26,182 nt of DNA, taken from contig JBDRDE010000078.1 of the NCBI GenBank assembly GCA_043821065.1, positions 1-26,182 on the forward strand, in the 5' to 3' direction. Every line of letters begins with the position of its first letter. Positions within the stretch are counted from its first letter, which is position 1. This DNA is from Candidatus Omnitrophota bacterium (GTDB lineage Bacteria > Omnitrophota > Gorgyraeia > JABMRJ01). Under the pieces are notes generated by a model, which worked only from the letters and a program-made list of their open reading frames with translations, was not told the DNA's origin and did not search any database. The position numbers and the translations under genes are program-made. Shown here in pieces: positions 219 to 10,741 of the stretch.

Positions 219-2294
219 TTAAAGCGGCGCGTCGATCCCAGCGAGCACACGGGCCGCCTGCTCATCATACGGATCGATCTTCAGTATCTTCTTCAGGTGC
301 CAAACCGCCCGCCTGAAAAGCCCCATCTCGCAATAAATAGACGCGAGATTCCTATGCGCCTTTAAGTACGCGGGCTTAAATCTGACGGCGCGTTTGAAAT
401 GGTATACGGCCTTATCCGTCATGCCCGTCTCCCTATAGATAGCCCCCAGGTTGTTGTGCGCCAAGGCGTAATTCGGCCTGAGTTTTATGGCCTTCCTATA
501 ATATTCCGCCGCATCCTCGTGATCGCCGGCTTTGTCGCTTAAGAGTCCGAGGTTATAATAGGCCGGAGCGTAATTCGCGTTTTTCTCCAGCGCCTTATAG
601 TAAAACCTCTCCGCCTCTTTGCTGTCGCCTGTCTGGGCGTATATTATCCCACCCACGTTATTGTATATCTCCTCGGGATAATCCGAGCCCAACTCTACCG
701 CCTTGGCGTAATTGCGCATAACCCCGTCTACAAGGCCGTATTTCTTGTATATGGCGCTCGCGAGGTTATTATAGAGTTTTCCGTCGGTTGGGCTGAGTTT
801 TATCGCATTTTCATAACAACGTATAGCCTTGGCGTATTTCTTGCTATCGAAGTAAGCCCGCCCGAGGTTGTTATATACTATAACGTTATTATGGCCTGTG
901 CCGGCCGCCTTCTCCCAGAATGTCACGGAATCCTTCCAGTCCTGGTTTCGCGAAAATGTGGAGTATGAGTAAAACGCCAATATGCCCATTACCAAAAACA
1001 CAAAGAGCGCTCTGAGAGATCCTTGAGAGAGGCGCCGAAACGCCTGTCCGGGCAACGCGGTAAGCCCTGCGGCCAATGCCACGCAGAATCCGAAAGACGG
1101 TATATACAACCGTTGTTCGGCCAGCGGCCGGGAAAAGAGGATGATGATATTGGACGCGGGTATCAAAGTCAGGAATGTCCACGCCAAACCGAACGAGAGG
1201 AGCCTCAGCCTGCCCGGGGCAAAAGACGGTCCTGACGTATCCCGATAAGTCTTTACCATCACGGCCAAGGCCGCGGATAAGCAAACCGCGGATAAAATGA
1301 CAGGCGGTTCAAAAAACGAACCCGGGAAACTCATGTATCGTTGCGCGTTGAGCCCGACAGGCAAGAAGAGCATCTTTAAATACGACCCGAGCGTCTTAAT
1401 GACCGTCAGCATGTGCGTATACGCTCCTATAGGCTCAAAGCGGGCAAAGACTACCTCAAGAAAGATCTTCTTAAGTATGATATAGAGAGCCGTTACAGCG
1501 AAAAAAGGTATTGCCATCACCGCCCCTCTTTTCTTTTCGGAAGGCGGCATAAAATACACTACATACGCGGCCAGGACTAACGGGCCGGCCAAGGCGGATG
1601 CCTTTGAAAGAAGTGACATTATAAATGAAAGCGCGCTCAAGAGATATAACATGACGGCTGAAGCGGACCCGCCGCGCCGCGCGCTCTTTATAAAAAATAG
1701 GCACATCAAAAGAATAAAAAGCATGGCGAGAAGCTCGGACCTGTTCTTTATCCAGCACACCGCCTCCGCATGGATAGGGTGCGCGGCGAAGAAGGCCGCG
1801 GCCAAAAAAGGCAGGTTGAAAACCGGCGGGCCTTCTCTTCCCCGGCTTTCCTTTATCAGTAAATTGACAAAGCAGTATACCCCTATGACGCACAATATGT
1901 GCAATATCAGGTTTGTCAGGTGGTAACCGAACGGGTTGAGCTTCCAGAAATAGTAGTCCAGGCAAAAGGCTACGCTTACAAGTGGGCGGTAGTCTATCTT
2001 ATCCGGTTCGTCCGCCTGCTCCCTGAAATCGGCGTCATGCTCTTTCCAGTAACGCGGCGTAAAGAAGAAAGGGATATTAGCTATATCCCTCATATACTCA
2101 TCCCTTATGACGAATATCTTGTCGTCCCATATAAATGAGTTTTTGAGGCTGTTGGCGTAAATGCCCACGCTCAGCGCCGTCAGTAAAAATATACCTAAAA
2201 GAATATTTTTAATATTCGTAACGCTCCTTGACTCCAGGCAGCGCGATGTGTAATACCTGGATGCGGACACTCGCTCTTGTGCTCCATATACCAT
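219..2294 (-). CDS. TMTC-like GT-C glycosyltransferase with ~6 C-terminal TPRs (paralog 1); start codon uncertain
   Basis: TM1 followed by FIWDD; YRPL; YHLTNLILH; HPIHAEAVCWIKNRSELL; AEQRLYIPS; RNQDWKD; repeated YNNLG-type TPRs. The 5' end overlaps the epimerase 3' end. Confidence 0.85.
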   Translation of the reverse strand: MVYGAQERVSASRYYTSRCLESRSVTNIKNILLGIFLLTALSVGIYANSLKNSFIWDDKIFVIRDEYMRDIANIPFFFTPRYWKEHDADFREQADEPDKIDYRPLVSVAFCLDYYFWKLNPFGYHLTNLILHILCVIGVYCFVNLLIKESRGREGPPVFNLPFLAAAFFAAHPIHAEAVCWIKNRSELLAMLFILLMCLFFIKSARRGGSASAVMLYLLSALSFIMSLLSKASALAGPLVLAAYVVYFMPPSEKKRGAVMAIPFFAVTALYIILKKIFLEVVFARFEPIGAYTHMLTVIKTLGSYLKMLFLPVGLNAQRYMSFPGSFFEPPVILSAVCLSAALAVMVKTYRDTSGPSFAPGRLRLLSFGLAWTFLTLIPASNIIILFSRPLAEQRLYIPSFGFCVALAAGLTALPGQAFRRLSQGSLRALFVFLVMGILAFYSYSTFSRNQDWKDSVTFWEKAAGTGHNNVIVYNNLGRAYFDSKKYAKAIRCYENAIKLSPTDGKLYNNLASAIYKKYGLVDGVMRNYAKAVELGSDYPEEIYNNVGGIIYAQTGDSKEAERFYYKALEKNANYAPAYYNLGLLSDKAGDHEDAAEYYRKAIKLRPNYALAHNNLGAIYRETGMTDKAVYHFKRAVRFKPAYLKAHRNLASIYCEMGLFRRAVWHLKKILKIDPYDEQAARVLAGIDAPL

Positions 2295-8554: not shown

Positions 8555-10741
8555 CTATCGCCTATGCGCGTTCAGCATCTCCAAAAACCGTTGGTTCTCC
8601 GGAGCGCCGAGCCTTATCGCCTTATCGTAATGCTCGATAGCCAGGCCGTACTCTTTTTCGTAGTAATATACTACCGCCAAATTGCTGTGCGCTTCCGCGT
8701 ATTCGGGGTCTATCATAATGGCCTTCACATATAAATCGACGGCTTCTTCGTTCTTCTCCTCCAAGACATAAATATTCCCCAGGCTGTTATAGGCCGCCGC
8801 GTATGCCGGGTCCATGCTGATAGCTTTTTGCAGCAGTTCTTCTGCCCGGCCGTATCCGCCTACTATACCCTTGGCTATGTATATATTGGCCAAATTTACA
8901 AGCGCGCCCGGGTTCCCCGGGTCTATCTCTATGATCTTCTTAAACGTCTCTTCTGACCGGGTGTTATCATTCATGATATGGTACACCGTTCCAAGATCGC
9001 TATAGGCCATGATAAAAGCCGGATCGAGCTTGAGGCATCTCTTGAATGAAGCTACGGCCTCGTGGGTTTTGCCCGCGCCCATGTAGGCCCTGCCCAGGTT
9101 ATAATAAGCGGCCGCGTAATCGGGGGATATCTCCACGGCCTTGGCGTATGCCTCTACCGCCTTTTCCGTATCCCCTTTTGAATTATAGAGATTTCCTAGG
9201 CTGTTATAAGTGAGCGCGTGGAATGGGTTGGCCTCCAAGGCTTTTTTGAAATACGCTTCCGCCTCTTTCTCGTCGCCCATTTGTAGATACGCGATGCCAA
9301 GATTATTGTATATATCTGCGTCCCCGGGCTTGAGCGCTTCGGCCTTTTTGAGAAATTCCAGCGCTTCCTTCGTTTTTTCTATCTCGCTTAAGAGTCCTCC
9401 CATCCCGTTATAAGCGGCCGCGGATCCCGGATCTACCCTGATGGCCGTCTCGTAGGAGTCCATAGCCTTCTTCATCATGCCCGCGCCCCTGTGCGTGTTG
9501 CCGAGATTATTATATATACCGGCGTTATCCGGAGAAAATCTCAACGCCCTCTCATAAACCGCCGCCGGCTCCTTCCAGTAACCGGCATGCCTGATGGTTA
9601 AAAAAGAATAGAAGGCGAGGAGTGCGGTGAGAATACCTGCGGAAACATGAAAGCCGATTCGCCGATTTTTGTTCCGGCCGGGTAACGACATTAAGGCCTT
9701 CGCCAGCATGAGAGAAAAGGCCATCGACGGCACATATAGCCAGTGCTCGGCCATATAGGCGTTTATTGGATATAGATTTGAGAGCGGTAGCAGCCATATG
9801 AAAAACCAGCTAATGGAAAAGAACGTCAATTTATTCTCTTCTCTTTTTTTAAGGGCGTGCCACAATAAACAAGAAACTATCAATACGCCTGATAGAGTCC
9901 CGGGGTAAAACCAACTGAATGTCCTGTTGGCGTATATCATATGCAAATCCAACGGCAAGAACAACAGCCTCATGTAATTGGTCATCGCGGCAAAAAAACC
10001 GGGCAGCCTTTCTAAAAAAGATGTGGCGGCCAGTGTATGCGGTGCCGGGATCTTAAGTACAGCCGTTCGCAGGAAAATATAAACCGCCGCCGCGCACACC
10101 ATAGGCGTAAATGCCGCGGCCCTGACTTTCTTCTTAAACGCGTAATGATAAAGGAGCAGGGCTATGGGAAAGGCCAGGCTGAGCTCTTTTGAGAAAAGCG
10201 CCAACACATAGCACGCGAGCGCGCAGACATATGTAACGAACTTCGCTCTTTCAAGATACTTTACATAAAAGACAAGCCCCAAGAGCATGAAGAGCGCCAC
10301 GAGCATATCCGACCTTCCCGATATATACGCCACGGCCTCGGTGTGGACGGGATGCGCAAGGAAAAGAGCCGCTGTTAACAGAGAAAGGACTTTATCCTGG
10401 AATAGGAGGCTTATAATCCAAAACAGAGCCAACGACACCAGGATGTGCAGGATTATATTGGTCACGTGGTAAGGCGCGGGGTTTAACCCGGATAAAAAAT
10501 AGTTTAACCTGTAGCTGAGTATCTGAACAGGGTGGTAGAGCGCGCTCTTCTTTCCGACGCCCGCCTCCGCGTCTGTGGTAAATATCTTAGGCGCGTATGA
10601 CCATTTTTTAATAAAGATATTGTTCTTTACCAGGTCTTCGTCGTCCCATACGAATTTACCGCTTACTGAACCGCCATAAAGGGCGAAACCCAAAGCCAGT
10701 AATAACAACCCCGCTATTAATACGGTTTTATTCCCGGACAT
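8555..10741 (-). CDS. TMTC-like GT-C glycosyltransferase with ~9 TPRs (paralog 3)
   Basis: FVWDD; YHPV; YHVTNIILH; HPVHTEAVAYISGRSDML; FSKE; AEHWLYVPS; nine TPRs. Confidence 0.88.
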   Translation of the reverse strand: MSGNKTVLIAGLLLLALGFALYGGSVSGKFVWDDEDLVKNNIFIKKWSYAPKIFTTDAEAGVGKKSALYHPVQILSYRLNYFLSGLNPAPYHVTNIILHILVSLALFWIISLLFQDKVLSLLTAALFLAHPVHTEAVAYISGRSDMLVALFMLLGLVFYVKYLERAKFVTYVCALACYVLALFSKELSLAFPIALLLYHYAFKKKVRAAAFTPMVCAAAVYIFLRTAVLKIPAPHTLAATSFLERLPGFFAAMTNYMRLLFLPLDLHMIYANRTFSWFYPGTLSGVLIVSCLLWHALKKREENKLTFFSISWFFIWLLPLSNLYPINAYMAEHWLYVPSMAFSLMLAKALMSLPGRNKNRRIGFHVSAGILTALLAFYSFLTIRHAGYWKEPAAVYERALRFSPDNAGIYNNLGNTHRGAGMMKKAMDSYETAIRVDPGSAAAYNGMGGLLSEIEKTKEALEFLKKAEALKPGDADIYNNLGIAYLQMGDEKEAEAYFKKALEANPFHALTYNSLGNLYNSKGDTEKAVEAYAKAVEISPDYAAAYYNLGRAYMGAGKTHEAVASFKRCLKLDPAFIMAYSDLGTVYHIMNDNTRSEETFKKIIEIDPGNPGALVNLANIYIAKGIVGGYGRAEELLQKAISMDPAYAAAYNSLGNIYVLEEKNEEAVDLYVKAIMIDPEYAEAHSNLAVVYYYEKEYGLAIEHYDKAIRLGAPENQRFLEMLNAHRR

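Follow-up and report, generated by a model that had tools for sequence, protein, structure and literature searches.

Results

Organization of the glycosyltransferase cluster

The DNA described here (the window) is a contig of 26,182 nucleotides, C78, from a metagenome-assembled genome (MAG) of an Omnitrophota bacterium, an assembly of 1.59 Mb that is 84% complete. One part of it holds four candidate glycosyltransferases of the C-type fold (GT-C), three of them fused to tetratricopeptide repeats (TPRs), together with two genes that may supply a lipid-linked pentose donor. The TPR-fused protein P0001 (219..2294, minus strand) has a membrane domain at about residues 1-456 followed by TPRs, for which the Pfam matches span residues 473-684. 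Beside it lie P0006 (2195..3325, minus strand), an extended short-chain dehydrogenase/reductase (SDR) of the NAD-dependent epimerase/dehydratase type and a candidate epimerase of a lipid-linked pentofuranose, and P0005 (3363..4337, minus strand), a UbiA-family protein of the polyprenyl phosphoribose synthase (PPPRS) or decaprenyl-phosphate phosphoribose (DPPR) synthase type, that is, a predicted polyprenyl-phosphate phosphoribosyltransferase. P0004 (4328..6295, plus strand) is a YfhO/AftD-like GT-C with a periplasmic beta-rich domain at about residues 430-612 and a last transmembrane (TM) helix. The remaining two TPR-fused proteins are P0002 (6268..8547, minus strand), with 11 TM helices in residues 1-420 and then about ten TPRs, and P0003 (8555..10741, minus strand), the most divergent of the three.

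The open reading frames (ORFs) for the UbiA-type protein, the SDR and P0001 are co-directional, with the P0001 ORF overlapping the 3' end of the SDR gene, and they form a minus-strand unit that continues into the start of a radical S-adenosylmethionine (SAM)-type gene. The P0004 ORF points away from the UbiA ORF and converges on P0002 with a 28-bp overlap. Between the UbiA and YfhO-like genes, promoter-like sites stand back to back (4258..4337, both strands): a minus-strand site at 4286-4258 (TTGCCA-17-TATAAT, 11/12, extended TG) and a plus-strand site at 4309-4337 (TTGACT-17-TATCAT, 10/12, extended TG). Both are among the four top-scoring sites of a promoter scan, and they lie in the roughly 100 bp between the probable UbiA start (4238) and P0004. 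By gene order, the UbiA-SDR pair is tied to P0001, as part of one unit, and to P0004, divergently, and not to P0002 or P0003.

Three TPR-fused paralogs with a conserved GT-C-type membrane domain

A preliminary description of this DNA had picked out three TM-plus-TPR paralogs by three shared motifs, and all three motifs are present. Each protein carries W-D-D right after TM1 (FIWDD in P0001, FMWDD in P0002, FVWDD in P0003), an HPxHxE motif (HPIHAEAV, HPAHTESV and HPVHTEAV, respectively) and an AExxLYxPS motif (AEQRLYIPS in P0001 and P0002, AEHWLYVPS in P0003). Identity between the TM domains is 41% for P0001 versus P0002 (E-value 9e-94) and 29% in the more distant comparison (E 5e-46), and by these sequence comparisons P0001-P0003 are true paralogs. 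In an alignment of 60 family sequences, which was too diverse for pattern design, conservation is complete or at least 90% at D31, D32, R77, P78, H99, H152, P153, E157, K199, E200, N346, A356, E357, L360, Y361 and P363. Because of this conservation, the motifs are best regarded as features of the family and not as chance resemblances. P0003 gives a weak match to PMT_2 (E 1.3e-3) and belongs to another clade than P0001 and P0002.

The kinship of the TM domain to GT-C enzymes became visible by fold comparison only. Single-sequence and profile searches of the PDB sequences with the TM domain returned nothing, and Foldseek with the full-length P0002 model returned TPR proteins only. The AlphaFold model of P0002 (predicted local distance difference test score, pLDDT, 93.7; predicted template modeling score, pTM, 0.89) has 11 TM helices and, from about residue 420, a TPR solenoid that is placed outside. 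When its TM domain was compared with solved GT-C structures using VIA-align against all representative chains, it aligned with AglB (Z 19.9, 321 residues), ALG12 (Z 18.8) and Pmt2 (Z 18.5, 348 residues), followed by STT3B (17.8), ArnT (17.2), Pmt4 (17.1) and PglB (16.3); the TPR part matches OGT with a Z of 26. The predicted model therefore supports a GT-C fold for the TM domain of P0002, and the same fold can be assigned to P0001 and P0003 through paralogy and the shared motifs.

A hidden Markov model of the family TM domain has 12 matches in the window's own assembly, three of which fall inside 10.5 kb, so that these genes are clustered in the locus above the genome average. The nine further matches are on other contigs of the assembly (C2, C71, C72, C86, C98, C119, C135, C182 and C268). 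The longest tandem arrays among the loci fetched for the family hold six copies, in a LacPavin 'Proteobacteria' MAG (L098), and seven copies, in the Omnitrophota chromosome CP070807 (L127).

These proteins had also been proposed to be TMTC-type, after the metazoan TMTC1-4 (CAZy GT105), protein O-mannosyltransferases of cadherins whose motifs have been defined and for which prokaryotic homologues have been noted (Eisenhaber et al., 2021, PMC7801869). Human TMTCs match the Pfam domain TMTC_DUF1736 at E < 1e-30, except for the canonical TMTC1 entry at 3e-19 (PMC7801869), whereas none of the three TM domains in the window matches it, even at E 10. Weak DUF1736 matches occur in 3 of 60 family members (best E 2.2e-7), and 8 of the 60 match PMT_2. 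Among 100 ESM Atlas neighbours, 49 are bacterial PMT_2 clusters and three are eukaryotic DUF1736/TMTC clusters, the first of these at rank 17. With the DUF1736 signature missing and the nearest Atlas clusters being bacterial PMT_2, the TMTC label was not borne out. The TPR proteins of the window resemble TMTC and the pilin glycosyltransferase TfpW in design, and we do not file them as members of the TMTC family.

A YfhO/AftD-like GT-C protein

P0004 possesses an acidic pair after TM1, E45-D46 (VIEDVY), in agreement with the earlier report of an ED pair in a YfhO-like protein. Conservation of the pair is moderate: across a 33-member P0004 family, E occupies position 45 in 20 sequences, and an acidic residue, E or D, occupies position 46 in 25. 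P0004 itself matches no Pfam or NCBIfam model, including YfhO (PF09586) and GT-C_AftD (PF11847). Three of its 42 homologues carry PF09586, weakly, and its ESM Atlas neighbours bear the names YfhO and GT-C_AftD, the latter on 13% of one cluster. YfhO acts in lipoteichoic acid glycosylation, and mycobacterial AftD uses a polyprenyl-phosphate pentofuranose donor, decaprenyl-phosphate arabinofuranose (DPA).

The P0004 model (pLDDT 90.7) has AftD as its best structural match (6w98_A; Z 21.4, root mean square deviation 5.3); the alignment takes in 509 residues, spans model residues 16-638 and includes the beta-rich periplasmic domain. Foldseek gives the same comparison an E-value of 5.9e-6, and the next structural matches are STT3, PglB and AftA, with Z between 17 and 21. 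Like YfhO and AftD (PDB 6w98), the modeled P0004 has a GT-C membrane core and a periplasmic beta-rich domain; unlike AftD, it is half the size, with about 12% identity over the structural alignment. A GT-C fold is thus supported by the models of both P0002 and P0004 and, for P0001 and P0003, by paralogy and motifs, as the preliminary description had proposed for all four proteins.

A putative donor module of a UbiA-type synthase and an SDR

The UbiA-type phosphoribosyltransferase and the epimerase reported in the middle of the cluster are P0005 and P0006, which do lie between the GT-C genes. P0005 scores 253.7 bits against NCBIfam NF008977, the decaprenyl-phosphate phosphoribosyltransferase equivalog (cut-off 234), and aligns over residues 35-323 with the solved mycobacterial enzyme Rv3806c (PDB 8j8j, E 1.9e-35). 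The ORF encodes 324 aa with a UbiA domain only. Because homologues align only from about residue 31-40, the true start is probably M34, at position 4238. By family assignment, P0005 is predicted to be a polyprenyl-phosphate phosphoribosyltransferase. P0006 matches Pfam Epimerase (E 7.8e-40) and has both an NAD-binding motif (ITGGAGFLG) and a YxxxK motif (YSESK). Its nearest solved relatives are deoxythymidine diphosphate (dTDP)-glucose dehydratases and GalE, and its true start is likely near 3229 (M33).

A published parallel exists in Citrobacter youngae O1 and O2, where a UbiA-type polyprenyl phosphoribose synthase, a flippase and a GT-C make up a widespread three-component system that adds pentofuranoses to glycans in the periplasm, with O-antigen as the acceptor (Kelly et al., 2024, PNAS, PMC11127046). 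In C. youngae O2 the single GalE-type SDR ORF13 converts lipid-linked ribofuranose (Ribf) to xylofuranose (Xylf), DprE1/E2 homologues lead to arabinofuranose (Araf), and elaborate versions with several GT-Cs or epimerases are also mentioned (PMC11127046). In the 84%-complete genome to which the window belongs, the sole match to FAD_binding_4, the family of interest for a DprE1-type gene, is a 303-aa frame on contig C107. The DprE1/DprE2 route to Araf was set aside, as no DprE1-type frame was found. A single-SDR route like that of ORF13 fits better, given the lack of a DprE1-type gene and the presence of one SDR with both NAD and YxxxK motifs.

Distribution of the donor module and of the TPR-GT-C genes

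We compared the locus with a sample of 201 Omnitrophota genomes, 33 of which hold the UbiA gene, and fetched 30 UbiA loci. An SDR homologue sits directly beside the UbiA gene in 9 of the 30, often as a tandem pair. Most of these loci have a large polytopic protein next door whose Pfam match is PMT_2/PMT, DUF2079, YfhO or, weakly, DUF2142; for PMT_2/PMT, DUF2079 or YfhO this holds directly in seven loci and by cluster membership in three more. UbiA plus SDR plus some GT-C is a recurring module in Omnitrophota. The preliminary suggestion of a polyprenyl-phosphate pentose donor for a periplasmic GT-C is a sound reading, given the NF008977 cut-off passed by P0005, its likeness to Rv3806c, the SDR partner in these nine loci and the published system (PMC11127046).

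Seven loci carry a tandem pair of SDRs (about 340 and 360 aa) beside the UbiA-type synthase. Such pairs could epimerize the lipid-linked pentose twice, for instance on the way to lyxofuranose, a sugar unknown in glycans according to Kelly et al. (PMC11127046). The sole relative with a TPR-GT-C gene near UbiA-SDR (L034, on contig C92 of genome G073) also holds a membrane-anchored sulfatase-family (LtaS/EptA-like) protein and a DUF2142-like GT-C, a content that suggests an envelope glycolipid modification locus.

The TPR-GT-C family was examined in 79 loci from many phyla, 1.23 Mb in total, with the alignment of the three paralogs as query. Relatives of P0004, P0001 and P0002 recur in a cassette that comprises several TPR-GT-C genes, a GT9 gene, B12- and SPASM-type radical-SAM genes and an Asn-synthase homologue, and that in some cases adds a small GT2 gene, a carbamoyltransferase with small ORFs, or GDSL(+TPR) genes. 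None of these recurring cassettes of relatives contains UbiA. In nine loci the YfhO-like and TPR-GT-C genes lie among SPASM, B12 and MiaB-like radical-SAM genes, an Asn-synthase homologue, an amine oxidase and methyltransferases. With TPR-GT-C genes mostly not accompanied by UbiA elsewhere, we read UbiA-SDR as a rare add-on to a conserved Omnitrophota cassette. These queries detected neither a UbiA-like nor a YfhO-like gene in three genomes from the same family, each 88-96% complete, which fits an accessory, variable island.

Flanking genes

The paralogs P0002 and P0003 belong to a minus-strand run that follows a secretin operon, with tight spacing or overlaps throughout: a GDSL/SGNH gene, a carbamoyltransferase, an SxtJ-like ORF, a DUF5989 ORF, a GT9 gene, P0003 and P0002. 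The GT9 (heptosyltransferase-family) cytoplasmic glycosyltransferase (10745..11956, minus strand; Pfam Glyco_transf_9, E 6.5e-18) is located 3 nt upstream of P0003, and its orthologues (E 1e-128 to 1e-163) adjoin TPR-GT-C genes in six loci of relatives. Next come two small membrane ORFs, both minus strand and both companions of the carbamoyltransferase: one is DUF5989 (SxtK-like; 11981-12139; PF19451, E 2.2e-21), the other SxtJ-like (12139-12408; PF19588, weak, E 2.7e-3). The NodU/CmcH-type carbamoyltransferase itself (12395..14263, minus strand) matches Carbam_trans_N at E 7.4e-109 and Carbam_trans_C at E 7.3e-74; a homologue is found in the related cassette L062, flanked by GDSL(+TPR) genes. 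The GDSL/SGNH hydrolase-type protein (14217..15245, minus strand) has an N-terminal hydrophobic segment and a match to Lipase_GDSL_2 that is below cut-off (E 3.2e-6).

The secretin operon (15638..23075, minus strand) encodes, by Pfam matches, an ExeA-like ATPase, a GspB/C-like protein, a secretin, a TPR protein, a small exported protein, a SurA-N/cyclophilin foldase and the exported protein P0168. The genome as a whole holds six secretin-like and four ExeA-like frames. In P0168 (15638-16426), the signal peptide is followed by three KEPTQV-type repeats, and the tail is rich in Pro, Glu, Ala and Lys; paralogs of this protein follow the secretin operon in most relatives. At the other end of the window, the 5' part of a B12-binding radical-SAM-type gene (2..268, minus strand) lies downstream of P0001 on the same strand and runs off the window. 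Its match to Pfam B12-binding is weak and below cut-off (E 5.5e-4); B12-radical-SAM genes accompany the TPR-GT-C/YfhO-like cassette in relatives.

Discussion

A proposed two-layer envelope glycosylation island

We lean towards reading the locus as a variable cell-envelope glycosylation island built of two layers, a recurring GT-C cassette and a rare donor module, and hold this with a confidence slightly above even. The reading starts from the gene content, the two GT-C folds, the conserved catalytic-type motifs and the donor-synthase family. The first layer would consist of periplasm-facing TPR-fused GT-Cs of a PMT_2/TMTC/TfpW-like kind, the YfhO/AftD-like GT-C, GT9, the carbamoyltransferase with its DUF5989 and SxtJ companions, the SGNH protein and radical-SAM enzymes. 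In the second, the UbiA-type synthase would make polyprenyl-phosphate ribofuranose-5-phosphate from phosphoribosyl pyrophosphate. After dephosphorylation, the GalE-type SDR would epimerize the lipid-linked ribofuranose, by analogy to the formation of Xylf. Once the donor had been flipped, its pentofuranose would be passed on to an acceptor beyond the inner membrane by P0001, by P0004 or by both. The Asp-Asp (or Glu-Asp) loop that follows TM1 would serve this transfer, with the acceptor held by the periplasmic TPR solenoid in P0001-P0003 or by the beta domain in P0004. The identity of the pentose, the choice of the GT-C that uses it and the acceptor are the parts that we infer. As acceptors of the TPR enzymes we consider a protein and a glycan or glycolipid to be roughly evenly balanced, and for P0004 we favour a glycan.

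Several observations weigh against this reading. A TPR-GT-C gene lies within 10 kb of UbiA in one of the 30 UbiA loci, and the 79 TPR-GT-C loci contain no UbiA homologue. Nor is there enrichment at the level of genomes, with the TPR-GT-C family in 125 of the 201 Omnitrophota genomes (62%) and in 22 of the 32 other UbiA-positive ones. The co-occurrence of TPR-GT-C and donor genes in relatives, which the preliminary description had named as a check, therefore failed to appear, and because the two are unlinked elsewhere, the use of a pentose donor by P0001 rests on gene order in one genome. The promoter and operon calls are consensus matches only. Two steps of the pathway also lack a gene at the locus. 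The window holds no phosphoribose phosphatase; there is one PAP2 frame on another contig, and haloacid dehalogenase (HAD)-type phosphatases were not searched for. No flippase was recognized among the window ORFs, and a search of the 84%-complete genome gave no GtrA (PF04138); MATE and SMR were not searched for genome-wide. Finally, the SDR might act on a nucleotide sugar instead.

Alternative readings and the question of the acceptor

We regard as possible, if doubtful, that the whole locus serves a surface glycan or glycolipid of the lipopolysaccharide core/O-antigen or exopolysaccharide type. Here GT9 would extend a lipid-anchored oligosaccharide in the cytoplasm, the GT-Cs would add periplasmic side-chain sugars, among them a pentofuranose as in Citrobacter O1/O2, the carbamoyltransferase and the SGNH protein would tailor the product, and the TPRs would act as scaffolds, a role that TPR domains have in AlgK, BcsC and PelB. 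Several features of relatives agree with this. Some of their UbiA loci hold Wzy_C (O-antigen ligase/polymerase family) and a Bac_transf + Polysacc_synt_2 fusion, GT9 homologues adjoin UbiA in two loci (L052 and L053), lie about 6 kb off in a third (L056) and stand beside TPR-GT-C genes in many cassettes, and gene content varies among close relatives in the manner typical of surface-antigen loci. The best structural match of P0004, beta domain included, is the arabinan-building AftD. GT9-type enzymes can also glycosylate proteins, as the autotransporter heptosyltransferases do, which counts against a purely glycan-directed locus, as does the lack in the window of an initiating phosphoglycosyltransferase, a Wzx/Wzy or an ABC exporter. 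The precedents divide as well: the published pentofuranose system acts on O-antigen (PMC11127046), whereas all characterized TPR-fused GT-Cs act on protein.

These last precedents favour the model of the preliminary description, in which three TMTC-type enzymes O-glycosylate proteins of the secretin system from a polyprenyl-phosphate pentose, and the carbamoyl and acyl enzymes tailor the protein-linked glycan. The sole characterized TPR-fused GT-Cs modify proteins. They are TMTC1-4 (PMC7801869) and, in Pseudomonas aeruginosa Pa5196/PA7, TfpW, a 646-aa GT-C that transfers D-Araf from a donor derived from a UbiA-type PPPRS onto pilin (bioRxiv 10.1101/2020.04.19.049825). Moreover, 12 paralog matches in a 1.6-Mb genome suggest many distinct acceptors. 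A pilin connection is visible in a sister clade. The density of prepilin-motif ORFs is 26.8 per Mb in the 79 TPR-GT-C loci versus 2.1 per Mb in UbiA-centred control loci. In at least eight species a pilin gene immediately precedes the GT-C gene, and a second pilin and a secretin often follow it. In a FastTree tree the pilin-adjacent copies cluster, with 6 label changes versus a shuffled mean of 11.6, figures that come from related loci that are not independent and from a quick tree.

The order itself, a prepilin-type gene, a TPR-GT-C gene, often a second prepilin and in several cases a secretin about 3 kb downstream, was seen in eight loci (at about 9.0-12.2 kb in 21-kb loci) from Omnitrophota or 'Planctomycetia' MAGs, and equals the pilA-tfpW arrangement of Pseudomonas.

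The protein-directed model nevertheless seems rather unlikely for this locus. The three proteins of the window fall in array-type clades without a pilin-adjacent member, the window contains no prepilin motif, and the seven prepilin-motif ORFs of the genome share no contig with a paralog. The proposed link to the secretin operon finds some support: an orthologous operon is followed by GT9 and/or TPR-GT-C in three other genomes (G245, G259 and the STA_84 MAG), but at two of the five close loci (in G012 and G242) no cassette follows it. The absent TMTC signature and the lack of co-occurrence with UbiA tell in the same direction. P0168 was dropped as a candidate substrate, being poor in Ser and Thr and without a Pfam match. 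The claim of a protein acceptor also loses force from the neighbouring genes, since GT9, carbamoyltransferase, SGNH, Asn-synthase-like and radical-SAM genes are equally typical of glycan tailoring. A narrower version, in which P0001 and perhaps its paralogs are protein O-pentofuranosyltransferases that add ribo- or xylofuranose to non-pilin exported proteins linked to the adjacent secretin system, appears decidedly unlikely.

That the adjacency is functionally meaningless, with UbiA-SDR an unrelated two-gene insertion and the four GT-Cs using donors made elsewhere, such as a polyprenyl-phosphate hexose from a GT2 enzyme, would fit the small GT2 genes of related cassettes without UbiA (236 aa in L062, 312 aa in L082) and the absence of UbiA from the TPR-GT-C loci, but it is very unlikely, because we know of no use of the PPPRS product except as a donor for GT-C enzymes, because the UbiA loci of relatives mostly have a GT-C gene next door, and because P0001 and P0004 are the GT-C genes nearest to the single UbiA gene of an assembly in which no other linked GT-C was found.

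Significance

TPR-fused GT-Cs form a very large, uncharacterized bacterial family that is present in most of the sampled Omnitrophota genomes and in many other phyla. Under the two-layer reading, this locus is one of few in which a TPR-GT-C and a recognizable donor pathway share one gene unit, which makes it rare and experimentally tractable, and the donor chemistry is approachable with existing synthetic farnesyl-phosphate-Ribf and farnesyl-phosphate-Xylf. If pentose transfer is false, the locus is one more variable surface-glycan island. If it is true, the locus would provide the first donor for the TPR-GT-C family and would carry the three-component pentofuranose concept both to GT-C families new to it and to a phylum that is uncultured and in part host-dependent. 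Should the acceptor moreover be a protein, protein pentofuranosylation would be on record for the first time outside Pseudomonas group IV pilins, and the large TPR-GT-C arrays seen in Omnitrophota and in related uncultured phyla would gain a first assigned function.

Comparison with known systems

Compared with the motifs published for TMTC, as opposed to an alignment with TMTC sequences, the window proteins share 11 TM helices with a lumenal or periplasmic TPR domain, the DD after TM1, YRP in loop 1, an HPxHT(E) motif (HPIHT in TMTC3) and an AE-containing motif before TM10. They differ in that no DW was spotted by eye in the TM7-TM8 loop and in the Arg of the TMTC 'AERV', which sits one position off in P0001 and P0002 (AEQR) and has no counterpart in P0003 (AEHW). 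The donor here is also probably not dolichol-phosphate-mannose.

TfpW is similar by its described architecture: the N-terminus is cytoplasmic, there are 11 TM helices, the first periplasmic loop carries a DDx motif, and the C-terminal part is a periplasmic TPR domain. Its donor derives from a UbiA-type PPPRS. Unlike the window genes, however, tfpW is directly downstream of pilA, whereas no prepilin-motif ORF occurs in the window, and its Araf route needs DprE1/DprE2 homologues, of which no DprE1-type gene was found here.

The C. youngae system differs from the locus in that P0005 lacks a fused phosphatase (PRP) domain, no MATE flippase gene is present in the locus, and the GT-C partners are TPR-fused PMT_2/TMTC-like and YfhO/AftD-like proteins. 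The two have in common a UbiA-type synthase, a GalE-type SDR and a GT-C with an extra periplasmic domain beside the synthase. The donor half of the locus therefore belongs to a published system, and the TPR-GT-C half to the large uncharacterized family. By analogy, both halves of the first idea, a polyprenyl-phosphate pentose donor and a TPR-guided GT-C acting on protein, have precedents.

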